From Escherichia coli (GTDB lineage: Bacteria > Pseudomonadota > Gammaproteobacteria > Enterobacterales > Enterobacteriaceae), in NCBI RefSeq assembly GCF_050920415.1, contig NZ_CP169309.1: a stretch of 64,000 nucleotides of DNA; one strand, 5' to 3'. Shown one piece after another: positions 2,086 to 57,298 of the stretch. The notes under the pieces are model-generated. The model did not search any database. It was not told the DNA's origin and saw only the letters and a list, made by a program, of their open reading frames with translations. The position numbers were made by a program, and so were the translations under genes. Position 1 is the first letter of the stretch; each line of letters begins with the position of its first letter.

Positions 2086-4643
2086 CGTCCACCTCCGGAG
2101 AACAGGCCACCATCACGCATCTGTGTCTGAATTTCATCACGGGCACCCTTGCGGGCCATGTCATACACCGCCTTCAGAGCAGCCGGACCTATCTGCCCGT
2201 TCGTGCCGTCGTTGTTAATCACCACATGGTTATTCTGCTCAAACGTCCCGGACGCCTGCGACCGGCTGTCTGCCATGCTGCCCGGTGTACCGACATAACC
2301 GCCGGTGGCATAGCCGCGCATCAGCCGGTAAAGATTCCCCACGCCAATCCGGCTGGTTGCCTCCTTCGTGAAGACAAACTCACCACGGTGAACAATCCCC
2401 GCTGGCTCATATTTGCCGCCGGTTCCCGTAAATCCTCCGGTTGCAAAATGGAATTTCGCCGCAGCGGCCTGAATGGCTGTACCGCCTGACGCGGATGCGC
2501 CGCCACCAACAGCCCCGCCAATGGCGCTGCCGATACTCCCGACAATCCCCACCATTGCCTGCTTAAGCAGAATTTCTGTCATCATGGACAGCACGGAACG
2601 GGTGAAGCTGCGCCAGTTCTGCTCACTGCCGGTCAGCATCGCTGCCATATTCTGTGCAATACCATCAAAGGTCTGCGTGGCTGCACTTTTTACCTGCGAC
2701 ATACTGTCCGTGGCGCTCTCTTCCCACTCACTCCAGCCGGACTTCAGGCCTGCCATCCAGCTCCCGCGAAGCTGGTCTTCAGCCGCCCAGGTCTTTTTCT
2801 GCTCTGACATGACGTTATTCAGCGCCAGCGGATTATCGCCATACTGTTCCTTCAGGCGCTGTTCCGTGGCTTCCCGTTCTGCCGGCCGGTCAGTCAGCCC
2901 CCGGCTTTTCGCATCAATGGCGGCCCGTTTTGCCCGTTGCTGCTGTGCGAATTTATCCGCCTGCTGCGCCAGCGCGTTCAGGCGCTCCTGATACGTAACC
3001 TTGTCGCCAAGTGCAGCCAGCTGGCGTTTGTACTCCAGCGTCTCATCTTTATGCGCCAGCAGGGATTTCTCCTGTGCGGACAGCTGGCGACGTTGTGCCG
3101 CCTCCTCCAGTACCGCGAACTGACTTTCTGCCTTCCACAAATCCCGGCGCTGCTGGCTGATTTTCTCATTTGCTCCGGCATGCTTCTCCAGCGTCCGGAG
3201 TTCTGCCTGAAGCGTCAGCAGGGCAGCATGAGCACTGTCTTCCTGACGATCGCCCGCAGACACCTTCACGCCGGACTGTTTCGGCTTTTTCAGCGTCGCT
3301 TCATAATCCTTTTTCGCCGCCGCCATCAGCGTGTTGTAATCCGCCTGCAGGATTTTCCCGTCTTTCAGTGCCTTGTTCAGTTCTTCCTGACGGGCGGTAT
3401 ATTTCTCCAGCGGCGTCTGCAGCCGTTCGTAAGCCTTCTGCGCCTCTTCGGTATATTTCAGCCGTGACGCTTCGGTATCGCTCTGCTGCTGCGCATTTTT
3501 GTCCTGTTGAGTCTGCTGCTCAGCCTTCTTTCGGGCGGCTTCAAGCGCAAGACGGGCCTTTTCACGATCATCCCAGTAACGCGCCCGCGCTTCATCGTTA
3601 ACAAAATAATCATCCTTGCGCAGATTCCAGATGTCGTCTGCTTTCTTAAACGCAGCCTCTGCCTTAATCAGCATCTCCTGCGCGGTATCAGGACGACCAA
3701 TATCCAGCACCGCATCCCACATGGATTTGAAGGCCCGCGCAGTCCTGTCTGCCCAGGTCTCCAGCGTGCCCATGTTCTCTTTCAGGCGGCGGGTCTGGTC
3801 ATCAAACCCTTTCGTTGCGGCCTCGTTCGCCGCCTGCAATGCCCCGGCTTCATCGCCGGAACGCTGCAACTGAGCAACATACGCAATCTGCTCCGCCGTC
3901 ACGTTATGGAACTGGCGTGCCATCGCCGTCAGCCCCGACGTCGGGTCTGTGGTCAGCTTCCCGAAGGCTTCAGCGACCTTGTCCACCTCCACGCCGGATG
4001 CAGAGGAGAAACGCGCCACACTCTGGCTGATGGACGCAATCTGAGCCTCACCGCTTACCCCCGCCTTAACCAGTGCGCTGAGTGACTCGCTGGTCTGGTT
4101 AAACGTCAGCCCTGCCGCCTGCCCGGCTCTGGACAGGACCAGCATGCGATCTGCCGTCAGACCCGACTGATTGCCGGAAAGGACCAGCGTTTTGTTGAAA
4201 TCGGACAGGGTTGAGTTGCCCTGATACCAGGCATACGCCAGCGCACCGGTCGCCACCGCCAGCGAGGTGGCCCCCACCATCGGCAGGGTGATCGCACCGG
4301 CAAGCCCCCTGAACATGGGGATCATCCCGCCGAAGGAGTCCTTCACCTGCCCCCCCTGTTGCAGCAGGATCAGCCACGGACTTTGCCCGCCTGCAAGCTG
4401 CGTGGCCACGTCGGTGAACTGTGCAGGCAGCATACGCATGGCGGCTTTATACTGCCCGACGGAAATCCCCGCTTTCTGTGCAGCCAGCGCCTGTCGGCTC
4501 AGCGACTGTTCAACGACTGCCGCTGTTTTTTTCGCATCACTTTCCGTACCGGAAAAATGACGCCTGACTCTGGCCATCTGCTCGTCAAATCTGGCCGCAT
4601 CCAGACTTAAATCAACGACCAGATCGCCTACCGGTTCAGCCAT
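2082..4643 (-). CDS. H: tail tape measure protein (lambda gpH-like)
   Basis: Track ORF 853 aa MAEPVGDLVVDLSLDAARFDEQMARVRRHFSG...; Ala/Gln-rich coiled-coil body with a Gly-rich C-terminal region. Confidence 0.95.
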   Translation of the reverse strand: MAEPVGDLVVDLSLDAARFDEQMARVRRHFSGTESDAKKTAAVVEQSLSRQALAAQKAGISVGQYKAAMRMLPAQFTDVATQLAGGQSPWLILLQQGGQVKDSFGGMIPMFRGLAGAITLPMVGATSLAVATGALAYAWYQGNSTLSDFNKTLVLSGNQSGLTADRMLVLSRAGQAAGLTFNQTSESLSALVKAGVSGEAQIASISQSVARFSSASGVEVDKVAEAFGKLTTDPTSGLTAMARQFHNVTAEQIAYVAQLQRSGDEAGALQAANEAATKGFDDQTRRLKENMGTLETWADRTARAFKSMWDAVLDIGRPDTAQEMLIKAEAAFKKADDIWNLRKDDYFVNDEARARYWDDREKARLALEAARKKAEQQTQQDKNAQQQSDTEASRLKYTEEAQKAYERLQTPLEKYTARQEELNKALKDGKILQADYNTLMAAAKKDYEATLKKPKQSGVKVSAGDRQEDSAHAALLTLQAELRTLEKHAGANEKISQQRRDLWKAESQFAVLEEAAQRRQLSAQEKSLLAHKDETLEYKRQLAALGDKVTYQERLNALAQQADKFAQQQRAKRAAIDAKSRGLTDRPAEREATEQRLKEQYGDNPLALNNVMSEQKKTWAAEDQLRGSWMAGLKSGWSEWEESATDSMSQVKSAATQTFDGIAQNMAAMLTGSEQNWRSFTRSVLSMMTEILLKQAMVGIVGSIGSAIGGAVGGGASASGGTAIQAAAAKFHFATGGFTGTGGKYEPAGIVHRGEFVFTKEATSRIGVGNLYRLMRGYATGGYVGTPGSMADSRSQASGTFEQNNHVVINNDGTNGQIGPAALKAVYDMARKGARDEIQTQMRDGGLFSGGGR

Positions 4644-4685
4644 ACCGGACTCCTCCTGCGATCCCTTCTGATACTGTCATCAGCA

Positions 4686-5069
4686 TTACGTCATCTCCGT
4701 CATGTCCGCCACATCCGGGGAAGCGGGGATAACTTCATTCCCGTCCGGGCCAAAGCGGACACCTCCGGCAAGCCCTGCCGCTTTCTGCATCAGCACATCA
4801 TCTTCAGGCTCTTCGTCAGCCTCGCGCCGGTTCAGCAGACTGAAATCCAGCGGATGCATATCCGGATCGCTGAAAAACAGGCTGAGCACGGTGTACGTCA
4901 GCCCGGAAAAGTGCATATCCAGCAGAACATCATGAAAATAATGGGTACTGTAAAAGCGGTGCCAGTCGGCATACTCCGTGGATGACATCCCGGCAAGCAT
5001 GGCACGCCAGTCAGGTCGCCCCATCTCACGCGCCAGTTTCAGGGCAAAACTCAGCTCACCGTCGAACAC
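4686..5069 (-). CDS. T: tail assembly chaperone T-frame segment (partner of G in the G-T fusion); C-terminally truncated relative to lambda T
   Basis: Track ORF 127 aa ...FDGELSFALKLAREMGRPDWRAMLAGMSSTEYADWHRFYSTHYFHDVLL...; ends ...DMTEMT* 43 nt upstream of the H start instead of overlapping it. Confidence 0.75.
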   Translation of the reverse strand: MFDGELSFALKLAREMGRPDWRAMLAGMSSTEYADWHRFYSTHYFHDVLLDMHFSGLTYTVLSLFFSDPDMHPLDFSLLNRREADEEPEDDVLMQKAAGLAGGVRFGPDGNEVIPASPDVADMTEMT

Positions 5070-5472
5070 TTTCCCGCAGAAACAGGCTCTGCGGGCCCGG
5101 CGTCCTCTGTCTGTTCAGGGCATTATTCACCACAAACTCATACATACCAGACAGCCGGTACACCACGTTTTCAGCATGAGAAATTGCCTCCGTGGGCCAG
5201 GTGGTAAGCACTTCCTGCTCAATCTGTTTAACGGCTTCATTCATGGACGGCAGCTTTGTCTTCTGCGGATGGTTATGCCACAGGGACATCGCCACCAGAA
5301 ACGCGCCGGTTCTGATGGCGTCTTCCACAGTAAACTTCCGGTTGCTGTCTGACTCCGCCTGTTCTGCCTGCCGTTTCATCAGGGCGAGATGCTCAATGCG
5401 CTGCAGGGCTGACAGTTCAGAAAGCGTGACGGTCACACCGTTATGTTCAAATGATTCGGTTTTCAGGAACAT
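5056..5472 (-). CDS. G: tail assembly chaperone G (lambda gpG-like) with frame-changed C-terminus
   Basis: Track ORF 138 aa MFLKTESFEHNGVTVTLSELSALQRIEHLALMKRQAEQ... ending ...VVNNALNRQRTPGPQSLFLRESVRR; slippery heptamer GGGAAAG at 5069-5075 (minus strand). Confidence 0.8.
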   Translation of the reverse strand: MFLKTESFEHNGVTVTLSELSALQRIEHLALMKRQAEQAESDSNRKFTVEDAIRTGAFLVAMSLWHNHPQKTKLPSMNEAVKQIEQEVLTTWPTEAISHAENVVYRLSGMYEFVVNNALNRQRTPGPQSLFLRESVRR

Positions 5473-22159: not shown

Positions 22160-22193
22160 GCTTCACCTCCGCAGAGGTCAAACGCTGGATGCA

Positions 22194-22278
22194 AAAAATC
22201 GCAGGTGCATCTCTGCATCTGTGAAGGGAGAAGAGAGTTTGGATTGTATGTGCGCATAAACGTCCCCGTTTAGCGCAG
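22194..22278. repeat. ~85-bp direct repeat, copy A (partner at 24128-24211, ~93% identical)
   Basis: AAAAATCGCAGGTGCATCTCTGCATCTGTGAAGGGAGAAGAGAGTTTGGATTGTATGTGCGCATAAACGTCCCCGTTTAGCGCA; contains imperfect hairpin GCGCATAAACG-TCCCC-GTTTAGCGC. Confidence 0.75.
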
Positions 22279-24060: not shown

Positions 24061-24127
24061 ATCACCTTTAGCCGCCAGACGAATAGAGACTCCCAATTCT
24101 GGCTGTCGAAGTAAAACACCGAATGTA

Positions 24128-24211
24128 AAAAATCGTAGGTGCATTTCTGCATCTGTGAATGGAGATGAGAGTTTGGATTGTGTGTGCGCATAAACGTCCC
24201 CGTTTAGCGCA
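24128..24211. repeat. ~85-bp direct repeat, copy B (partner at 22194-22278)
   Basis: AAAAATCGTAGGTGCATTTCTGCATCTGTGAATGGAGATGAGAGTTTGGATTGTGTGTGCGCATAAACGTCCCCGTTTAGCGCA; about 6 mismatches versus copy A. Confidence 0.75.
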
Positions 24212-27271: not shown

Positions 27272-28287
27272 AAATCCACCCCGTAAATCCAGTCAGTGTT
27301 TGTCAGGTCGAGTTTTGATTTTCCGGCTATCACGCCAGCCTGTTGCTTGTTACGGTTGATTTCGAGTTGGGTCCACTTGTCGCGGAGTTTGGCCGGACTT
27401 AGCACGTTACCGGACCAGAAGTTGTCCTGGCATGCCCAGCGGAACAGCACGCACATGTCGCGGTGGTTACGGCCGTCACGTTCACGCATCAGGCGGATAT
27501 CGTTAGCCCACCCTGCAAAATTCGGTTTTCTGGCTGATGGCGCGATGGTCTTCACCATGTCAAACATCCACTCTGCGGCGGTCAGGTCTTCTGCTGTCCC
27601 CCACCTGCTGCCGCTCTGAATTGCAGCATCTGGTTTCTCCACAGGAAGATCGTTTTCTGGTTGGTCAGAGGATTCGCCAGAATTCTCGGACGAAAAAGGT
27701 TTTATATTGTCTTTTGTTAGTTTGTCTTTTGTGTTTACCTGATTCGGGTAAGTGCCTTTACCTGATTTGGGTAAACTTTTCTTACCTGATTCAGGTAAAT
27801 TTACCTCTTTCAGGTAAACTTTATTTTTCTTACCTGATTCGGGTAATGTTGACCATTCACTGACCACATTATTAATGCCGATATTCCGCCCGCTCTGAAT
27901 AAAAATCCCACGCTTTACCAGAACACTTTTTGCAGCAGAACACTTGTGCGGCAATATCCCGGTCAACTCGGAAAGTTGCTCGTTGCTCACCCAATCCAGT
28001 TTTTTATTAAAGCCATATGTTTTGCGCATGACAGCCAGGAAGACCAGAAGCTGGTGCTGTGTTAATCCGGCCAGCATCACAGCTTCCAGCAACTCATTTG
28101 CAATGCGCGTATAACCATCATCGAGATCTGCCACGCGCGGCTCCTTTTGTGCCGCATCCGGCACTGGAAAATTGAATATCTCAGCAGTGTTTGCCATAAT
28201 TCCTCCCGCAATGAGTGTGTTACGATTTGCACCTGAAAGTCGGTTCTGTTCCCGCAGACCGACTTTCGCCATTTCTGAACCTGTCAT
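27268..28287 (-). CDS. O: replication initiator O (lambdoid O-like; origin iterons inside the gene)
   Basis: Track ORF 339 aa (start uncertain; internal Met at MANTAEIFNF...); C-terminal part resembles the lambda O P-interaction domain; iterons at 27735-27846 lie within the coding sequence. Confidence 0.8.
   Translation of the reverse strand: MTGSEMAKVGLREQNRLSGANRNTLIAGGIMANTAEIFNFPVPDAAQKEPRVADLDDGYTRIANELLEAVMLAGLTQHQLLVFLAVMRKTYGFNKKLDWVSNEQLSELTGILPHKCSAAKSVLVKRGIFIQSGRNIGINNVVSEWSTLPESGKKNKVYLKEVNLPESGKKSLPKSGKGTYPNQVNTKDKLTKDNIKPFSSENSGESSDQPENDLPVEKPDAAIQSGSRWGTAEDLTAAEWMFDMVKTIAPSARKPNFAGWANDIRLMRERDGRNHRDMCVLFRWACQDNFWSGNVLSPAKLRDKWTQLEINRNKQQAGVIAGKSKLDLTNTDWIYGVDL
27698..27846. 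repeat. ori: replication origin: five palindromic iterons (TACCTGATTCGGGTA-like) plus adjacent AT-rich segment
   Basis: Copies at ~27736-27750, 27759-27773, 27783-27797, 27802-27816, 27831-27845; AT-rich stretch 27698-27734 on the downstream side relative to O. Confidence 0.65.
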
Positions 28288-34332: not shown

Positions 34333-34675
34333 GGCCTGTCAGTTTCTTAAGATATCCAGACCAACCGCCACCAACTGGATACGAACAGGCCGCCTACAGG
34401 CAACACGTAAAGATCCAACCAAGCCAAAATCTCCTTACCTCACAACACGGCAAGCCTGCATTGCGGCGCTTCAGTCTCCGCTGCATACTGTCCAGGTGAG
34501 CGCGGGTGATGGCATAACAGAGGAAAGAAAATGTCACTCTTCCGCAGAAATGAAATATGGTATGCCTCGTATTCGCTCCCGGGCGGGAAACGAATTAAGG
34601 AATCTCTTGGCACAAAGGACAAGCGGCAAGCTCAGGAGTTGCACGACAAGCGAAAAGCAGAACTCTGGCGAGTAG
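34304..34675 (+). CDS. xis: excisionase-like protein (AlpA/Xis-type HTH), overlapping int start
   Basis: Track ORF 34274-34675; [37 protein letters not shown]... has the HTH pattern of AlpA/Xis-family excisionases; the open frame runs ~145 nt into int. Confidence 0.5.
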
Positions 34676-35694
34676 AAAAGCTAGGGGATTTACCTGATGT
34701 CACTTTTGAAGAGGCCTGCCTAAGATGGCTTGAGGAAAAAGCTGATAAAAAATCTCTCGATTCAGATAAAAGCCGGATTGAGTTCTGGCTTGAACATTTT
34801 GAGGGTATAAGGCTTAAAGATATCTCGGAGGCAAAGATTTACTCTGCTGTAAGCAGAATGCATAACAGAAAGACGAAAGAAATATGGAAACAGAAAGTTC
34901 AGGCCGCCATCAGGAAAGGTAAAGAACTGCCTGTTTATGAACCAAAGCCAGTATCAACTCAGACAAAGGCAAAGCATCTTGCCATGATAAAGGCCATTCT
35001 CCGTGCTGCAGAACGCGACTGGAAGTGGCTGGAAAAAGCGCCTGTCATCAAGATACCAGCGGTCAGAAACAAGCGAGTCAGATGGCTGGAAAAGGAGGAA
35101 GCAAAACGCCTTATTGATGAGTGCCCCGAACCACTGAAATCTGTCGTCAAGTTTGCGCTGGCAACTGGTCTGAGAAAGTCGAACATCATAAATCTGGAAT
35201 GGCAACAAATCGACATGCAGCGACGAGTTGCCTGGGTGAATCCAGAAGAGAGCAAATCAAACCGCGCCATTGGTGTGGCGCTAAACGATACCGCCTGTAA
35301 AGTGTTGCGTGATCAAATAGGCAAGCATCACAAATGGGTGTTTGTACATACCAAGGCGGCTAAGCGAGCAGATGGAACATCAACGCCTGCGGTCAGGAAG
35401 ATGCGCATCGACAGCAAGACATCATGGCTATCAGCTTGTCGTCGTGCAGGAATTGAAGATTTCCGTTTCCATGACCTCAGACACACCTGGGCAAGCTGGC
35501 TGATTCAGTCAGGCGTCCCATTATCAGTGCTTCAGGAAATGGGCGGATGGGAGTCCATAGAAATGGTTCGTAGGTATGCTCACCTTGCGCCTAATCATTT
35601 GACAGAGCATGCGAGGAAAATAGACGACATTTTTGGTGATAATGTCCCAAATATGTCCCACTCTGGAATTATGGAGGATATAAAGAAGGCGTAA
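34531..35694 (+). CDS. int: tyrosine site-specific integrase
   Basis: Track ORF 387 aa [47 protein letters not shown]...[39 protein letters not shown]; catalytic R..HxxR..Y signature; ends 15 nt from the tRNA 3' end. Confidence 0.95.
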
Positions 35695-35730
35695 CTGATT
35701 GAATTGTAATGGCGCGCCCTGCAGGATTCG
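35695..35730. other. prophage-host junction (att site overlapping the 3' end of argU); exact core not determinable without the distal copy
   Basis: int stop at 35694 and tRNA 3' end (CCA) at 35710; the second att copy is off-window. Confidence 0.5.
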
Positions 35731-35786
35731 AACCTGCGGCCCACGACTTAGAAGGTCGTTGCTCTATCCAACTGAGCTAAGGGCGC
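35710..35786 (-). tRNA. argU: tRNA-Arg (anticodon UCU)
   Basis: Reverse complement reads GCGCCCTTAGCTCAGTTGGATAGAGCAACGACCTTCTAAGTCGTGGGCCGCAGGTTCGAATCCTGCAGGGCGCGCCA; D- and T-arm consensus, anticodon loop CUUCUAA, 3' CCA. Confidence 0.9.
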
Positions 35787-44520: not shown

Positions 44521-45906
44521 TTACTTACGACGCCAGGTGGTCCCTTGCGGGCCATCTTCCAGCACGATCCCCATCTCGTTAAGACGGTCACGCGCCGCAT
44601 CTGCCGCCGCCCAGTCTTTCGCTTTACGGGCATCCAGACGCTGTTGAATTAAGGCTTCAATCTCAGCCACTTCGCTGTCGTCTGCCTGCGCGCCGCTTTG
44701 CAGGAACGCTTCCGGTTCTTGCTCCAGCAGGCCCAGCACGGCTGAAAGTTTACGCAGATGAGACGCCATCGCGTTTGCCGCTGCCATATCTTCTGCTTTC
44801 AGACGGTTCACTTCACGCGCCATATCAAACAGCACGGAATAGGCTTCCGGGGTGTTGAAATCGTCGTCCATCGCTTCAATAAAGCGCGCTTCAAACGCTT
44901 CGCCACCGGCAGGCGCAACGGTTTTATCTGTGCCGCGCAGCGCAGTGTAGAGGCGCTCCAGCGCCGCACGCGCCTGCTTCAGATTCTCTTCGCTGTAGTT
45001 CAGCTGGCTGCGATAGTGGCCCGACATCAGGAAGTAACGCACGGTTTCCGCGTCGTAGTATTTCAGCACATCACGCACGGTAAAGAAGTTACCCAGCGAT
45101 TTGGACATCTTCTCTCGGTCAACCATTACCATCCCCGAGTGCATCCAGTAGTTCACATACTGACCATCATGGGCACAGGTGGACTGCGCGATTTCGTTCT
45201 CGTGGTGCGGGAACATCAGGTCTGAACCACCGCCGTGGATATCAAAGTGGTTACCCAACTGCTTGCAGTTCATTGCCGAACATTCAATGTGCCAGCCTGG
45301 ACGGCCTGCGCCCCACGGAGACGGCCAGCTCGGTTCGCCCTCTTTCGACATCTTCCACAGAACGAAGTCCATCGGGTTGCGTTTGTCGTCGACCACGTCA
45401 ACGCGCGCGCCTGCCTGCAGCTGGTCGAGATCCTGACGCGACAGCACGCCATAAGTTGGATCGGTCGGTACGTCGAACATCACGTCGCCGTTGTCCGCCA
45501 CATAAGCGTGACCTTTGGCGATCAGTTGTTCAGTGAGTTCAATGATTTCTGCGATATGGTGCGTCGCGCGCGGCTCCATATCCGGGCGCAGAATGTTCAA
45601 AGCATCAAAATCTTTGTGCATTTCGGCGATCATGCGATCCACCAGCGCTACAAAGCTTTCGCCATTTTCATTGGCACGCTTGATGATTTTGTCGTCGATA
45701 TCGGTAATGTTGCGCACATACTTCAGCTTATAGCCGAGGAAACGCAAATAGCGTGCAACCACGTCAAAGGCAACAAAGGTACGCCCGTGACCGATATGAC
45801 AGAGATCGTAAACGGTGATTCCACACACGTACATGCCGACTTCCCCGGCGTGAATAGGCTTAAATTCCTCTTTTTGGCGTGTCAGAGTATTGAAGATTTT
45901 TAGCAT
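44521..45906 (-). CDS. cysS: cysteine--tRNA ligase
   Basis: Track ORF 461 aa [48 protein letters not shown]...KMSKSLGN; class I HIGH and KMSKS motifs. Confidence 0.95.
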
Positions 45907-48990: not shown

Positions 48991-49007
48991 CCTGGTGCTC
49001 AAATTCT

Positions 49008-49205
49008 TGCCGGATGCAGCGTGAACACCTTATCCGACCTACTAATCCGGTACCCATTGTAGGCCTGATAAGACGCGTCAAGCGTCGCATCAGGCATGGT
49101 GCGCCGATTACCGGATGCGGCGTGAACGCCTTATCCGACTACCAATCCGGTACCCATTGTAGGCCTGATAAGACGCGTCAAGCGTCGCATCAGGCATGGT
49201 GCGCC
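49008..49205. repeat. REP/BIME element: two tandem ~95-bp units of paired REP palindromes
   Basis: GCCGGATGCAGCGTGAACACCTTATCCGACCTAC...TGTAGGCCTGATAAGACGCGTCAAGCGTCGCATCAGGCA repeated twice with few mismatches, between convergent purK and ybcF. Confidence 0.75.
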
Positions 49206-49223
49206 ATATGCTGGATGCTCCCA

Positions 49224-50120
49224 TCACGACAGCGAAATACAGGTCCCCGCTTCGCCCGCCAGCGTCTCTTCAATCCGCGATAAAGCCCCAATCCACGCAG
49301 GTTTACCACGGCTTCTGACATAGCCACTCACCGCCGTTACCTTCGGCCCCATCGCCCCATCGGCTTTGGCAAATGGCGCTAACTCATCCGGTGTGGCATG
49401 GCGAATGGCGCGTTGCTGCGGCGTTCCCCAGTTTTCATAAACCGCGTCAGCATCGGTGAGGATCACCAGTCCATCGGCATTAATCTGCTCGGCAAGCAAC
49501 GCCGCGGCGAGATCTTTATCAATCACCGCTTCACTCCCTGCTCCGTCATCCGTCACCGGAACACCGCCGCCGCCACTGCAAATCACCACATGCCCCTCTT
49601 TGAGCAACAACTCGATGGCTTCGCTGTCGAGAATTTTACGAGGCTGGGGAGATGCCACCACCCGGCGTAAATATTTGCCATCACGCTTCATTTTCCAGCC
49701 GTAAGCCGTTTCCAGTGCCTCTTGTTCTTCTGGCTGATAAACCGGGCCGATAAACTTCTCTGGCTGCAAAAACGCCGGATCATCAGACGAAACTTCAATG
49801 CGTGTCAGCACCGTCGTCACAGGCGGCATCTGCGGCTGTGCGCTCAAACTCTGCGCCAGCATATAGCCAATCATCCCCTGACTTTCCGCCACCAGCACAT
49901 CCAGTGGATACGGTTCGACCTCTTTCCACGCCAGATTCTGTAACGCCAACAACCCCACCTGCGGCCCGTTGCCGTGAACAATCGCCAGCCGATAAGCACG
50001 CGCCAGGCGCGCCAGCGCGGGAACAGCACTGGCAATATTGCGATATTGATTTTCTGCCGTCAGCGCCTCACCGCGCTGGAGTAAGGCATTGCCCCCAAGA
50101 GCTACAACCAGTGTTTTCAT
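49224..50120 (-). CDS. ybcF: carbamate kinase-like protein
   Basis: Track ORF 298 aa [56 protein letters not shown]... Confidence 0.9.
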
Positions 50121-50932
50121 GGTGTTCCTTGTAATAATTGTTGACCAAGCCAGAACCCCAGCAGCGTATCAGCCCCTGACGTATGCCCCAGCGCCAGCAG
50201 CGAATCAATCGCAACAGCGGTACGTTTCGGGCAACTCAGAGCATGAACAAAGTGCAGGAGTGGCGAGGCGAAGTATCCTTGCGCGGCATAACGTAAATAA
50301 TTAACGCTCACCGCTGTGGTAACGAGTTGAAGATTGTCGGAACAGGCAAAAAACGGGCGACCGGAGCGCGCATCTAAAGCGCCATAATACCAGGCTGCCA
50401 GCAGCATTCCCGTTAGCGTGTCATCATGACTCGGCGTTAATCCCGGCCCTTTACCCAGCCAGTGCCGCCAGTCGGTCTTAACGCCATTGAGCGCGGCCTG
50501 AAAACAGTGACGAAACTGGCGTAATTCAGCGGGAAGCGGATCGCCTGCCGCCAACGCCAGCGGCCCGAAAAGCCCGGTTTCCTCCGCGCGTTGCATCCAT
50601 GCCGCTGCAAGTGGTTGAGGATGCGCAGGCGGCGTAATACGCAGCAAACAATAACGCTGTGGCTGTTTAACCGTGAAACGCCCGAGGCGAATCCCTTGAG
50701 CCATAACCTGTGGTCGTTCATTGCCGCATAATCCACCGCATAACGCATCGAATTGCGCGCGGCGAAGCACCCATCCTCCGGGACCGAAACCACTTCCCTG
50801 ACGATGCAGCGTTAACAATTCACCGCTTTCCGTCATCAGGTTAATCGCCCGCCGCCACACGCCCGCTAACCGCCAGGACTGGCGATAATTCGGTGCACTA
50901 CGGCTGGCAAGCAGAGGATGGATGATCGTCAT
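50117..50932 (-). CDS. ylbF: YlbF protein (uncharacterised, allantoin-cluster associated)
   Basis: Track ORF 50117-51025 overlaps ylbE; start chosen at internal Met [32 protein letters not shown]... (271 aa), leaving a 10-nt gap to ylbE. Confidence 0.8.
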
Positions 50933-50942
50933 TGCGCGTTCC

Positions 50943-52202
50943 TCAACCAATCCCCATGCTTTCAGCCAGAGCTTCCAGCGCCTGTTCAAAGCACGCCAGC
51001 GGTGCCCGCACAGTGCCTGCACCAATCTGCCCGATCCCCGCCTCTTTATGGGCGATACCCGTATTGATGAGTGGTGTAATGCCGGTTTCTACCACGCGAC
51101 GAATATCCAGCCCCAGGCACGCGCCCTGGAAATCCCAGCCAGGGATCTGCAACTGCATATTGCGCTCAAGGAAGATTTCTGCCATCTCTTCAGATACCGC
51201 TCTGGCTGCTTCCATGCCACCCGCACCGACAAAGCGCGTTACGCCAGGCGCTGCGATCATCGCGGCACCACCGATACCAAAGGTTTCGGTAATCGCGCTA
51301 TCGCCCATATCCGGGTTCGCCTGCTCCTGCGAGAAGCCGGTGAAAAACAGACCTTGCGGAGTGTTAACTGGCGCAGTAAACCAGCGCTCGCCCAGCCCGC
51401 TGACCCGAATCCCGAACATATTGCCGTTGCGGGTCATAGCCGTGACGATGCTGCCCGCGCGGATCATCGCGCCTGCATCCATCGCCGCCTTGCAATAGGC
51501 CATCGCGAGGTTGAGGAAGAACTGATCGGTCACGCTGAGGAAATCCATCACTTCCGCGATGTGCTGTTTATCGTGATTGAGGCGAGCAATTTGTGGGGCC
51601 AGCGCACGCATTAACAGTGCTGAGGAAGCAATATTGCGCTGATGGAATTCATCGCCCATCGTAATGCCCTGCGCCATCATCGCGGTGAGATCGATACCGC
51701 GCTCCATGCGCCCCAGCGCCGCGCTTAATACCGGCATTAACACATCACGCATCCAGCGATGGCGAGTCAGGACATCTTCGCCGTAAGCGCCAAAACGCAT
51801 CACTTTACCGATACCTTCATTGAGGTTGCAGTACGCCCGGTTACCGTCGGTCACGTTCTCGACCACCAGCATCGGCATACTGGCAGAAGTAATTCCGCCC
51901 ATTGGCCCGACGGCATTCACATGGTGACAAGGAATGAAGTTCACTTCCCCCTGCTCCAGCATCGCCAGTGCCTGCGCTTCATCTTTCGCCCAGCCTTCAA
52001 ACAGACACGCACCCACGCACGCCCCTTTCATGGGGCCGGTCATCTCCTGCCAGCGCATCGGCGGCCCGGCGTGAAGCAGTGTTTTACCCTGATTTAATTC
52101 ATTAATGAGTGAAGACGCCGGTTGCACATCCAGCCAGTGTGGACGAGCGCGACGAATTTGTTCGATAACCGCAGCATTGGCTTGCGCCACTGATGTAAAC
52201 AT
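50943..52202 (-). CDS. ylbE: YlbE protein (DUF1116 family), uninterrupted here
   Basis: Track ORF 419 aa [51 protein letters not shown]... Confidence 0.85.
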
Positions 52203-52211
52203 GGGAACCCC

Positions 52212-53879
52212 TTATTGCAAACATTCTAATAAACGAGCCAGTTTTTTATTGCCGCCAGCGACTGGTGACCATTGGTAATGCACAACCGGTTTGCTGGCGC
52301 TTTGTAGTTCCAGCGCAAAGCTGCGTAATCCGATGTTAATCACGGCGACGTTTTCCAGTAATGACGGTGTGTGTGGCTGTGTGGCAGGCGAGAGCGGATG
52401 AATTAACGCCGCCGCCAGCAAGGTGGCTTCCGGCAGCGAACTCACTACCGCGATCCCTGCATCTTCCAGCGTGGCGATTTGTTGCGAGCGGCATTGCGGG
52501 TCACGTTCAGTGCCTGTCACCGTGGCAATGGCATACAGTGGTTGATTGTCTGGACGCGCGGCACAGGCTTTTTGCCAGGCGCTTACCAGCGAGGCTGCAG
52601 GATCGGTGGTCGCACCGAAGCCAATCACCACATCAAGCAGCAATACGCGCACTTGCGGTTTAGCGCCGAGATCGGCAATTAACTGGTTGCGTAAGGTTGG
52701 GTCGATCATCGGATGGGGACGCCCGACGGTGTAAAAATCATCGCCGAGGTCAATAATCTGGTGACCATCGGCGTCGAGCATCATGCCGTGATGATGGGTA
52801 TCGTCGGCTACCACGCCAAGATGCGCGGCAAGTAATCCCGCCGCTTCGGCGGCTAACGTACCGCCGGTATACAAGCCGCAAATAAGTCCGCTGCTGACAG
52901 GTGCTATTGCGTTACGTCGCGCCGTAACGCGTGAAAGCAGGCAAGCCAGGCGTGCAGCCTCATCCAGCGAGGAGGCAAACCAGACATTCTCGTCGCGGGC
53001 CACCGCCGGGATATAACCTAAAAACAGCGCCACCGTTGGTTTGCCGGTTGCTTTCATGGCATTAACAATTTTCAGACGCACAGCTTCGGCAGGCGGTTTT
53101 GAAACAAACGCCAGCACTTCGCTTTTCTCATCTACACTGAGCATTTCCAGCGCCGTTAGCGCACTGATGCCGCCCACGTCACGGCTGAGGTCGCGCCCGC
53201 CAAGACCAATCGCGTGAGTAATTCCCTCACCTGCCAGTGCAATCTGCGAACACAGTTCCTGAATCCCGGTACCGGAAGCGCCAATGACGCCAATGTTGCC
53301 TTCCGGCATCACGTTAGCAAAAGCCAGCGGCGTGGCGGCAATCATCGATGTACCGCAGTCCGGCCCCATCACCAGCAAACCTTTTTCCCGCGCGTGGGTT
53401 TTAAGTTGGATTTCATCTTCCAGCGTGACGTTATCGGAGAACATCATCACGTTGAGGTTGCGATCCAGCGCCTGGTTCGCCAGTTCCGCCGCATACTCGC
53501 CAGCCACTGAAATCAGCGCCAGATTGGCATTGGGTAATTTCTGACAGGCACTGTCCCAGCGACGCACCAGCGTCAACGCCTGGCTGCTGCCCGTTCCCTG
53601 CGCCAGTTGCTTTAGCGCCTCTTCAAGCTGCTGCATAATCGCCTGCGCGATCCCCGCATCCGCCGCTTCGCTACGAATTGCCACGCAAATATCGTTCGGC
53701 GTGGCGTTATTAAAATCGTCATGCCAGAAACCTGTGGTATCTAATAACGCTTTATTGGCGGGCGTACCCATCATTACGGAAACATCATCAACATTTTCTG
53801 ATTCGCTGAGTTTTCGTGAAATAATCATTAAACTGACCGAATCCTGAAAACACCCTTTTTTAATAAAGGCGTGGATCAT
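52212..53879 (-). CDS. fdrA: FdrA (succinyl-CoA synthetase alpha-like CoA-binding protein)
   Basis: Track ORF 555 aa MIHAFIKKGCFQDSVSLMIISRKLSESENVDDVSVMMGTPANKALLDTTGF... Confidence 0.9.
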   Translation of the reverse strand: MIHAFIKKGCFQDSVSLMIISRKLSESENVDDVSVMMGTPANKALLDTTGFWHDDFNNATPNDICVAIRSEAADAGIAQAIMQQLEEALKQLAQGTGSSQALTLVRRWDSACQKLPNANLALISVAGEYAAELANQALDRNLNVMMFSDNVTLEDEIQLKTHAREKGLLVMGPDCGTSMIAATPLAFANVMPEGNIGVIGASGTGIQELCSQIALAGEGITHAIGLGGRDLSRDVGGISALTALEMLSVDEKSEVLAFVSKPPAEAVRLKIVNAMKATGKPTVALFLGYIPAVARDENVWFASSLDEAARLACLLSRVTARRNAIAPVSSGLICGLYTGGTLAAEAAGLLAAHLGVVADDTHHHGMMLDADGHQIIDLGDDFYTVGRPHPMIDPTLRNQLIADLGAKPQVRVLLLDVVIGFGATTDPAASLVSAWQKACAARPDNQPLYAIATVTGTERDPQCRSQQIATLEDAGIAVVSSLPEATLLAAALIHPLSPATQPHTPSLLENVAVINIGLRSFALELQSASKPVVHYQWSPVAGGNKKLARLLECLQ

Positions 53880-54195
53880 AACAACTCCTTAAAAATTGCA
53901 CCCATGGCAATTGCACGAGCAGTGTTAATGTGGCGATTACGGTATCGATGGATGGTGACAAATAAGGTGATGAATATCACACGGAGATTATTAGCAAAAG
54001 AATTCAAATAACCGCCAGACTATTACGCGTTATTTTTTAATAAGCATAGTTGTTTTAAAAACCAGGTTAAAAGCGAGCGGATTATCAAATAAATTCTAAC
54101 TATATTTTTTTGCCTGTCTGGATCACATAATCCAGATATTTTCCCTGTATGTTAATTGCAGTCATGCTTCACACCGTCGTTAAAAAGGAAGACAG

Positions 54196-55245
54196 ATGAA
54201 AATCAGTCGGGAAACACTCCACCAGCTAATCGAGAATAAACTCTGCCAGGCTGGGTTAAAACGTGAGCACGCTGCAACCGTGGCTGAAGTATTGGTTTAC
54301 GCCGATGCCAGAGGGATCCACTCTCATGGCGCGGTGCGCGTTGAATACTACGCAGAGCGCATATAAAAAGGCGGCACCAACCGCGAACCAGAGTTTCGTC
54401 TTGAAGAAACCGGACCGTGCTCGGCAATTTTACATGCCGACAATGCCGCCGGACAGGTCGCGGCAAAAATGGGTATGGAACATGCCATCAAAACCGCCCA
54501 GCAAAAAGGCGTTGCGGTGGTCGGTATCAGCCGGATGGGTCACAGCGGCGCAATCTCTTATTTTGTGCAGCAGGCAGCCCGCGCCGGATTGATTGGCATT
54601 TCGATGTGCCAGTCCGATCCAATGGTGGTGCCGTTTGGCGGCGCGGAAATTTACTACGGCACTAACCCACTGGCCTTTGCCGCGCCGGGAGAAGGCGACG
54701 AGATTCTTACTTTTGATATGGCGACTACCGTACAGGCGTGGGGGAAAGTTCTCGATGCACGCTCGCGCAATATGTCTATCCCGGATACTTGGGCGGTCGA
54801 TAAAAACGGTGCACCAACAACCGATCCCTTCGCGGTTAACGCCCTGCTCCCGGCTGCCGGACCGAAAGGTTATGGCCTGATGATGATGATCGACGTCCTC
54901 TCAGGCGTCTTACTCGGCTTACCGTTCGGGCGTCAGGTCAGTTCGATGTATGACGATTTACACGCCGGACGTAATTTGGGGCAATTACATGTAGTTATTA
55001 ATCCGAACTTTTTCTCCTCCAGCGAATTATTCCGTCAACATCTTAGCCAGACCATGCGCGAATTAAATGCCATTACCCCCGCGCCCGGTTTTAACCAGGT
55101 TTATTATCCCGGACAGGATCAGGATATTAAACAACACAAAACCGCCGTCGAAGGTATCGAAATTGTTGATGATATTTACCAGTATTTAATTTCCGACGCG
55201 CTTTATAACACGTCATACGAAACGAAAAATCCCTTTGCGCAATAA
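54196..55245 (+). pseudogene. allD: ureidoglycolate dehydrogenase gene allD interrupted by an in-frame TAA at codon 57 (54364-54366)
   Basis: ATG 54196 reads MKISRETLHQLIENKLCQAGLKREHAATVAEVLVYADARGIHSHGAVRVEYYAERI-TAA-KGGTNREPEFRLEETGPCSAILHADNAAGQVAAK and continues in the same frame into the 258-aa track ORF 54469-55245; total 349 codons; the stop is confirmed by the antisense track ORF reading ...LFI... across it. Confidence 0.75.
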
Positions 55246-55266
55246 TTGTTGAGACAGGACTTTCTT

Positions 55267-56502
55267 ATGATTACACATTTCCGTCAAGCCATAGAAGAAA
55301 CGCTGCCCTGGCTTTCCTCTTTTGGCGCTGACCCAACGGGTGGAATGACCCGTTTACTTTATTCGCCGGAGTGGCTGGAAACCCAGCAGCAATTTAAAAA
55401 AAGAATGGCAGCAAGTGGGCTGGAAACACGTTTCGATGAAGTGGGGAATTTATACGGCCGCCTGAACGGCAGCGAATACCCCCAGGAAGTGATTCTGAGC
55501 GGTTCGCATATTGATACCGTGGTTAACGGCGGTAACCTCGACGGACAATTCGGCGCACTGGCGGCGTGGCTGGCGATTGACTGGCTGAAAACGCAATACG
55601 GCGCGCCGCTGCGAACGGTCGAAGTGGTGGCAATGGCGGAAGAAGAAGGCAGCCGCTTCCCGTATGTCTTCTGGGGCAGTAAAAATATCTTTGGGCTGGC
55701 GAATCCTGACGACGTGCGGAATATCTGTGATGCCAAAGGAAATAGTTTTGTCGATGCAATGAAGGCTTGCGGATTTACTCTGCCGAACGCCCCACTAACT
55801 CCGCGTCAGGATATTAAAGCCTTTGTCGAACTGCATATCGAACAGGGCTGTGTGCTGGAAAGTAATGGGCAGTCAATTGGCGTGGTGAATGCAATTGTCG
55901 GGCAACGTCGCTATACGGTGACGCTGAACGGCGAATCAAACCATGCAGGCACCACGCCGATGGGTTATCGTCGTGATACGGTTTACGCTTTCAGTCGCAT
56001 TTGCCATCAGTCAGTTGAGAAAGCGAAAAAGATGGGCGATCCGCTGGTGCTGACCTTTGGCAAGGTGGAGCCGCGCCCGAATACGGTGAATGTAGTGCCG
56101 GGTAAAACCACGTTCACCATTGATTGTCGTCATACCGACACTGCCATGTTGCGCGATTTTACCCAACAGTTAGAAAACGACATGCGGGCGATTTGCGATG
56201 AAATGGACATTGGTATTGATATCGATTTATGGATGGACGAAGAACCCGTGCCGATGAACAAGGAGCTTGTCGCCACCCTGACAGAATTGTGTGAAAGCGA
56301 AAAACTGAATTATCGGGTAATGCACAGTGGTGCCGGGCACGACGCACAAATTTTCGCGCCTCGCGTGCCGACCTGCATAATTTTCATTCCCAGCATCAAC
56401 GGGATCAGCCATAACCCGGCGGAACGCACCAATATTACCGACCTTGCCGAAGGGGTCAAAACGTTGGCACTCATGCTTTATCAACTTGCCTGGCAGAAAT
56501 AA
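55267..56502 (+). CDS. allC: allantoate amidohydrolase
   Basis: Track ORF 55246-56502; start at internal Met gives 411 aa MITHFRQAIEETLPWLSSFGADPTGGMTRLLYSPEWLETQQQFKK... Confidence 0.9.
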   Translation: MITHFRQAIEETLPWLSSFGADPTGGMTRLLYSPEWLETQQQFKKRMAASGLETRFDEVGNLYGRLNGSEYPQEVILSGSHIDTVVNGGNLDGQFGALAAWLAIDWLKTQYGAPLRTVEVVAMAEEEGSRFPYVFWGSKNIFGLANPDDVRNICDAKGNSFVDAMKACGFTLPNAPLTPRQDIKAFVELHIEQGCVLESNGQSIGVVNAIVGQRRYTVTLNGESNHAGTTPMGYRRDTVYAFSRICHQSVEKAKKMGDPLVLTFGKVEPRPNTVNVVPGKTTFTIDCRHTDTAMLRDFTQQLENDMRAICDEMDIGIDIDLWMDEEPVPMNKELVATLTELCESEKLNYRVMHSGAGHDAQIFAPRVPTCIIFIPSINGISHNPAERTNITDLAEGVKTLALMLYQLAWQK

Positions 56503-56512
56503 GGAGTTATAA

Positions 56513-57298
56513 ATGGGATATTTAAATAACGTCACCGGTTACCGCGATGATTTACTGGCTAACCGTGCGATTGTTAAACACGGTAATTTCGCGCTGCTAA
56601 CCCCGGACGGTCTGGTAAAAAATATTATTCCGGGCTTTGAAAATTGTGACGCGACAATCCTCTCCACGCCAAAGCTGGGGGCCTCTTTTGTTGATTATCT
56701 GGTCACACTGCATCAAAACGGCGGCAACCAACAGGGCTTCGGTGGTGAAGGAATTGAAACGTTCCTGTATGTGATTTCTGGAAATATCACTGCCAAAGCC
56801 GAAGGGAAAACATTTACCTTAAGCGAAGGTGGCTATCTTTATTGCCCGCCGGGTTCCTTAATGACGTTTGTTAATGCTCAGGCCGAAGACAGCCAAATAT
56901 TCTTGTATAAGCGCCGCTATGTTCCGGTAGAAGGCCATGCGCCGTGGCTGGTTTCTGGCAATGCCAGCGAACTGGAACGCATTCACTATGAAGGTATGGA
57001 CGATGTGATCTTGCTGGACTTCCTGCCCAAAGAGTTAGGTTTTGATATGAACATGCATATCCTCTCTTTTGCGCCAGGTGCCAGCCACGGTTATATCGAA
57101 ACTCACGTCCAGGAACACGGTGCCTATATTCTTTCCGGTCAGGGGGTTTATAACCTCGACAATAACTGGATCCCGGTGAAAAAAGGCGATTACATCTTTA
57201 TGGGCGCTTATTCCTTACAGGCCGGTTATGGCGTAGGGCGTGGTGAAGCGTTTAGTTATATTTATTCGAAGGATTGTAACCGCGACGTTGAGATTTAA
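56513..57298 (+). CDS. allE: (S)-ureidoglycine aminohydrolase (cupin)
   Basis: Track ORF 261 aa MGYLNNVTGYRDDLLANRAIVKHGNFALLTPDGLVKNIIPGFENCDATIL... Confidence 0.9.
   Translation: MGYLNNVTGYRDDLLANRAIVKHGNFALLTPDGLVKNIIPGFENCDATILSTPKLGASFVDYLVTLHQNGGNQQGFGGEGIETFLYVISGNITAKAEGKTFTLSEGGYLYCPPGSLMTFVNAQAEDSQIFLYKRRYVPVEGHAPWLVSGNASELERIHYEGMDDVILLDFLPKELGFDMNMHILSFAPGASHGYIETHVQEHGAYILSGQGVYNLDNNWIPVKKGDYIFMGAYSLQAGYGVGRGEAFSYIYSKDCNRDVEI

Follow-up and report, generated by a model that had tools for sequence, protein, structure and literature searches.

The window analysed here (the whole stretch of 64,000 nucleotides) contains allD, the gene of (S)-ureidoglycolate dehydrogenase, in the form of a pseudogene (54196..55245, plus strand), recognised by its translation, by profile and PDB matches, and by the PGAP flag in NZ_CP169399.1. 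Its context inside the ALL cluster is as expected: allD is divergent from allFGHK and is followed by allC and allE. The allF-allG-allH-allK genes (fdrA, ylbE, ylbF, ybcF; 49224..53879, minus strand) have no internal stops and encode oxamic transcarbamylase and carbamate kinase, responsible for the steps after AllD (PMC11326118). The spacer between allF and allD (53880..54195, as delimited by the gene positions) is the control region with the shared promoter, where AllS and ArcA control is common to both divergent genes (PMC12535856). On the other side, allC (allantoate deiminase, 411 aa; 55267..56502, plus strand) and allE ((S)-ureidoglycine aminohydrolase, 261 aa; 56513..57298, plus strand) are also free of internal stops; together with allD they form the allD-allC-allE operon, of which allD is the promoter-proximal gene (PMC12535856) and allE the last one. 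A consensus scan for promoters and terminators in 53850-55400 yielded nothing relevant above the shuffle expectation.

The initial annotation, which was made from the sequence of the window, held that the remaining genes of the allantoin cluster were intact, and both translations without internal stops and the annotation of a sister genome agree with this. The intact genes in the window are allK, allH, allG, allF, allC, allE, glxK, ybbY, allB, allW and glxR, while hyi, gcl, allR, allA and allS, which extend beyond the window edge, are intact in the sister genome MFDS1022581. The intergenic spacer between purK and allK (ybcF) comprises a tandem repeat (49007-49218) with a period of 100 nt, 2.1 copies and 92% matches, which holds the REP-like motifs GCCGGATG / CATCAGGC.

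Positions 1-35707 of the window (junction at 35708) belong to a prophage of at least 35.7 kb, situated at the 3' end of tRNA-Arg(TCT) (35710-35786, minus strand), an argU-type site. The prophage encodes a tail tape measure protein, terminase, portal, S49 peptidase, porin and integrase (34531-35694); its left end lies beyond the window, and copies with about 99% identity are present in E. coli 20KM2222 and MS 85-1. Two kinds of repeats were observed in it. Three copies of the 22-nt element TTTTCTTACCTGATTCrGGTAA, with an inverted repeat inside and a spacing of 47-48 nt, are located at 27730-27846, and this array resembles an operator or an iteron. A 104-nt direct repeat with 89% identity occupies 22174-22277 and 24108-24211, 1,934 nt apart. 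The tRNA-Arg(TCT) site of MFDS1022581 is empty and adjoins envY.

The allD frame extends from ATG 54196 to TAA 55243-55245 and comprises 349 sense-codon positions with one internal stop. This stop, TAA at 54364-54366 (plus strand), is in frame with ATG 54196 and corresponds to codon 57 of allD, the frame translation being MKISRETLHQLIENKLCQAGLKREHAATVAEVLVYADARGIHSHGAVRVEYYAERI*KGGTNREPEF... The list of open reading frames accordingly contains a 56-aa N-terminal stub with Ser43, His44, Arg48 and Tyr52 (54196..54366, plus strand) and a 258-aa frame starting at Met92 (54469..55245, plus strand), while the antisense frame 54203-54466 reads ...CRLFICAL... over the stop site. Thus, the sequence and its translation agree with the in-frame TAA at codon 57 and with the antisense LFI reported in the initial annotation.

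The gene was also identified there as allD with the expected length of 349 codons, and the family comparisons bear this out. The protein with Ser57 restored matches two equivalog models over positions 1-349 of 349, namely NF011599 (711.3 bits, cut-off 356) and TIGR03175 (656.3 bits, cut-off 496.2), whereas the 258-aa fragment by itself scores 483.3 bits, under the TIGR03175 cut-off. The restored protein matches PDB entries 4FJS/4FJU, 1XRH and 4H8A end to end (E = 9.5e-233, about 1e-232), and the crystallised E. coli AllD spans residues 1-349, the same length as the frame in the window. As the AllD models match from profile position 1, the real start is not downstream of the stop; a true start 3' of the stop was the alternative that a check against orthologues had been proposed to address, and it is ruled out, since both the equivalog models and the crystal structure begin at residue 1 and the stop lies inside the gene. 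The gene in the window is allD by homology, yet it is predicted not to be a functional member of the AllD equivalogs.

The ancestral state of codon 57 can be read from other alleles. In the nearest intact alleles among complete genomes (RMDEC465, N96 and EC42405) the codon is TCA (Ser) and not TAA, in line with the comparison to other E. coli allD genes that had been suggested, and Ser57 is also present in the crystallised E. coli AllD. Judging from these alleles, the allD lesion is a single C-to-A transversion (G:C-to-T:A) at 54365, converting Ser57 TCA to the ochre codon TAA. This substitution does not shift the frame, and no homopolymer indel is involved. A sense codon occupies position 57 both in close relatives and in the wider family, as is characteristic of a nonsense pseudogene.

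Around allD, a 21.9-kb block of the chromosome is nearly identical to that of one complete genome and shares 97.6-98.4% identity with about seven further relatives, while its identity to all remaining complete E. coli genomes does not exceed 96.6%. This fits a rare divergent Escherichia lineage as the origin of the window strain. The allele is shared with M863, which serves as a reference for cryptic clade I of Escherichia (PMC4182557), and from this, together with the divergence from mainstream E. coli, we infer that the window strain belongs to clade I. The nonsense allele, hereafter S57*, would then mark a sub-lineage of a rare divergent group that includes M863.

The frequency of the stop depends on the background against which it is counted. 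The 41-mer centred on TAA occurs in one of 5,426 complete RefSeq genomes, a figure that is uninformative alone because the flanks are polymorphic and the wild-type control 41-mer matches only 17 genomes. Among complete genomes with the local haplotype of the window, the stop is present in one of 18. On the mainstream haplotype, the wild-type codon 57 is found in 3,571 complete genomes, and S57* in none of them.

The window allele also bears on the age of the lesion. All its amino-acid differences from the alleles of RMDEC465, N96 and EC42405, apart from the stop, are found in at least one intact allele, and the search for scars of relaxed selection in comparison with these three alleles gave no sign of long decay. 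Because the stop is the sole amino-acid change unseen in the compared intact alleles and the partner genes are intact, the data point to a recent inactivation of allD. The gene further contains six synonymous differences within 52 bp (54738-54789, allD nt 543-594; codons 181, 183, 185, 187, 188 and 198), which none of the other alleles in the 11-allele comparison has, and this cluster looks like a short imported recombination tract.

The stop at codon 57 is also found on a different background. In GCA_965254525.1 (3001-4050), S57* resides on a mainstream allD haplotype with 40 nucleotide differences from the window allele, and the polymorphic sites flanking the stop change differ as well, both upstream (allD nt 168 and 162, at 2 and 8 nt) and downstream (nt 195, at 25 nt). 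Either the mutation recurred independently here, or it was transferred in a recombination tract of less than 27 bp. The allC gene of the same locus (4072-5262) has a 45-nt in-frame deletion, encoding 396 aa vs 411.

Other null alleles at allD codons 54-75 were collected from public assemblies and Logan contigs (loci L008-L015). E54* (G160T) is seen on at least three local haplotypes, including that of the complete chromosome OZ038812.1, and its 53-aa stub has entries in 117 indexed blocks; C75* (C225A), one -1 frameshift and one +1 frameshift are among the other early alleles. S57*, E54* and C75* are all G:C-to-T:A transversions. One explanation of such recurring early nonsense alleles is that loss of allD is positively selected, as it would redirect ureidoglycolate to the glyoxylate/glycerate branch or avoid dead-end oxamate. 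The occurrence of S57* on a mainstream haplotype, the multiple haplotypes with E54*, and the presence of C75* and two frameshifts speak for such selection, and Touchon et al. (2009, PMC2617782, Table 6) list allD among genes with convergent inactivation in Shigella, considering positive selection possible for them. The null alleles, taken one by one, are nevertheless very rare: neither S57* nor E54* turns up in any of the 3,571 complete genomes of the mainstream haplotype, and the second E54* haplotype had no match in the complete-genome search. Moreover, given the many public assemblies, recurrent single G:C-to-T:A nonsense changes would be expected in any weakly constrained gene, and the downstream allFGHK genes are kept intact. 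The sample is also biased, as the clusters were seeded with the 56-aa and 258-aa fragments and can recover only truncations before codon 92, and several of the recurrent cases come from single assemblies or Logan contigs. Selection for the loss is therefore an unlikely explanation. Together with Shigella, the collection shows that allD is dispensable and repeatedly lost; selection for the loss is not demonstrated. A related conjecture, in which the recurrence of early nonsense alleles reflects either positive selection for closing the oxamate branch in some niches or a local hotspot of oxidative-damage mutation, seems quite unlikely; if it were true, the window allele would be one case of repeated adaptive loss and not of neutral decay.

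The consequence of the stop for the enzyme can be assessed against published data on AllD residues. The R48A and H116A mutants are fully inactive, and in S43A, H44A and Y52F kcat/Km falls roughly 400-500-fold (Kim et al. 2012, PMC3527362); Domain I is formed from both N- and C-terminal regions, by helices alpha1-3 and alpha10 (PMC3527362). The TAA at codon 57 places Arg48 and His116 on separate open reading frames, and no single uninterrupted polypeptide contains both. The first in-frame ATG, GTG or TTG past the stop is ATG 54469, codon 92, that is, exactly the Met92 at which the initial annotation had considered re-initiation; no in-frame start was found between codons 57 and 92, ATG 54445 being out of frame. 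The SD-like sequence GGACAGG is located 9 nt upstream of ATG 54469, with a duplex energy of -5.1 kcal/mol vs -5.6 at the native allD site, and a 258-aa fragment may well be made from Met92. This fragment keeps His116, Ser140, Asp141, Met251 and Arg259, and does not include residues 1-91, hence Ser43, His44, Arg48 and Tyr52. As the essential Arg48 is 5' of the stop, no alternative start restores a complete catalytic unit. Since the Met92 product has none of these four residues, and R48A alone abolishes activity, AllD activity is almost certainly lost. The published point mutants thus argue that the 258-aa fragment would be inactive, and they support the earlier opinion that an N-terminally truncated enzyme is unlikely to function.

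Could allD still be functional, through a restart at Met92, a split enzyme assembled from the 56-aa and 258-aa parts, or read-through or ochre suppression yielding full-length AllD? The SD-like GGACAGG before ATG 54469, the open and unmutated frame past the stop and the intact allFGHK partner genes are compatible with this; an open downstream frame, however, is equally expected of a recent pseudogene. A restart product would come without Arg48, His44, Ser43 and Tyr52, whereas a split enzyme would still miss residues 57-91, as there is no start codon between codons 57 and 92. Suppression finds no support in the window, where the only tRNA is Arg-TCT and no suppressor tRNA is present. As for recoding, none of the 3,571 mainstream-haplotype genomes has the stop, nor do 17 genomes that share the window haplotype, and so it is not a conserved recoding site. 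Selenocysteine recoding uses UGA, and UAA is not known to be recoded in E. coli. The codon in allD is UAA, unlike the recodable stops UGA (with a SECIS element) or UAG (with Pyl machinery), and it is not conserved across orthologues, in contrast to what programmed recoding or read-through would imply. Retention of AllD function by any of these routes is thus highly improbable.

The allele is present in several assemblies besides the window. The complete RefSeq genome of MFDS1022581 (NZ_CP169399.1; animal-source food, Korea) contains an identical allD allele (100% over 1,221 bp), and its allD (locus ACE00D_RS18080) is called a pseudogene by PGAP with the note 'internal stop'. The two sequences are collinear over 35708-64000 of the window (28.3 kb) with one SNP, at 44983, a synonymous change in cysS Asn308 (AAT in the window vs AAC). 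Owing to this SNP and to the prophage at tRNA-Arg, which is absent from MFDS1022581, the window strain is distinct from the latter, and therefore the stop is seen in independent assemblies. In GCA_001650555.1, a third assembly, 6,171 bp match the window without a single difference, TAA included. The exact 56-aa stub occurs on 73 contigs and the exact 258-aa product on 39 contigs; the two products have neighbouring accession numbers in M863, 1.2741 and two BDI genomes, the split fragment proteins being identical in M863 (EGB60534/EGB60533) and 1.2741 (EGE66481/EGE66480). For a single codon, recurrence in other assemblies is a more telling check than the odds of a TAA by chance. As the same TAA occurs in separately deposited assemblies that differ elsewhere, the stop is a heritable allele and not an artefact, and the base reported initially is real. 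Although single-base errors do happen and the 41-mer with the stop is found in just one of 5,426 complete RefSeq genomes, a sequencing or assembly error in a really intact allD is barely conceivable, given the same base in at least three assemblies that differ elsewhere (the window, MFDS1022581 and GCA_001650555.1), the records of split products from M863, 1.2741 and two BDI genomes, the stub on 73 contigs and the frame-preserving nature of the change at codon 57. The allele is already known, being flagged in RefSeq and, in clade I strains, deposited in split form years ago.

Taken together, these data favour, with a probability of about 0.9, the view that allD in the window is a genuine, vertically inherited loss-of-function allele that arose via a single G:C-to-T:A transversion. 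Ribosomes would stop after 56 residues at the codon 57 ochre, and the product of the sole in-frame restart, at Met92, would have lost the N-terminal portion of Domain I together with the essential Arg48 and three second-shell residues (Ser43, His44, Tyr52), so that no active (S)-ureidoglycolate dehydrogenase would be produced. Ureidoglycolate is a branch point, from which AllD leads to the oxamate branch and AllA to the glyoxylate/glycerate branch; in the former, oxalurate is converted to oxamate and carbamoyl phosphate by AllFGH, and the latter compound yields ATP and NH3 via AllK (PMC12535856). With a loss-of-function allD, the oxamate branch of anaerobic allantoin catabolism would be shut at its first step, and ureidoglycolate would exit only via AllA to the glyoxylate/glycerate branch.

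The initial annotation went further and supposed that the stop specifically breaks the step from ureidoglycolate to oxalurate. Loss of AllD is indeed favoured, but specificity is not guaranteed, as allD is promoter-proximal in allD-allC-allE. With allD at the head of the operon and up to 900 nt between the stop and allC going untranslated, Rho-dependent polarity could possibly lower the expression of allC and allE, although this is speculative; it is the products of these two genes that set free the first two NH3. The 3' part of allD includes a C-rich, G-poor stretch (54977..55115, plus strand), which would be a candidate Rho loading region if untranslated; its 20-27 C vs 10-14 G per 78 nt is a heuristic count of composition and not evidence of function. 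Translation restarted at Met92 might protect the mRNA from polarity, and allC has its own weak SD.

Growth on allantoin had been proposed as a test of the lesion, but it may not be decisive. In anaerobic K-12 about 90% of allantoin is converted to oxamate, and a delta-allFGH mutant, blocked one step past AllD, still grew on allantoin and used 25.5 of about 40 mM (PMC11326118). As two NH3 are released before AllD acts (PMC11326118), an allD-null strain should fail to form oxamate, yet it could still grow on allantoin. The literature search on growth of allD mutants retrieved results for delta-allFGH, delta-allS and delta-arcA and, within the literature covered, no direct delta-allD phenotype.

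Compared with AllD of E. coli K-12 (b0517; Pfam Ldh_2 PF02615), the window has the same gene with the same length and position (divergent from allF and followed by allC and allE), and there are seven amino-acid differences in residues 92-349. The decisive difference is TAA in place of Ser57, which divides the catalytic residues between the stub (Arg48, His44) and the possible fragment (His116, Ser140, Asp141). The allD genes of MFDS1022581, M863 and 1.2741 have the identical allele or fragment proteins, whereas the strain background differs. The E54*, C75*, -1 and +1 frameshift alleles are likewise early truncations that leave the same 258-aa frame starting at Met92, but they affect other codons on other haplotype backgrounds and are of independent origin. 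In Shigella, the same gene and pathway step have been lost within the E. coli species complex; there, however, the loss is a part of genome-wide reductive evolution, while in the window, from a non-Shigella lineage, a single clean point mutation is the only lesion of the cluster.

Thus, the allD allele is an ordinary nonsense pseudogene, specific to one lineage and affecting a catabolic gene that is not essential; it is of little import beyond strain-level annotation; it opens no long-standing question, and the NCBI pipeline already marks allD as a pseudogene. The SNP is a handy marker for a sub-lineage of the rare divergent Escherichia group. Its carriers are expected to form neither oxalurate nor oxamate from allantoin and to lack the oxamate branch with its yield of ATP and NH3, and hence a carrier would be a natural allD-null background for the study of the ureidoglycolate branch point.
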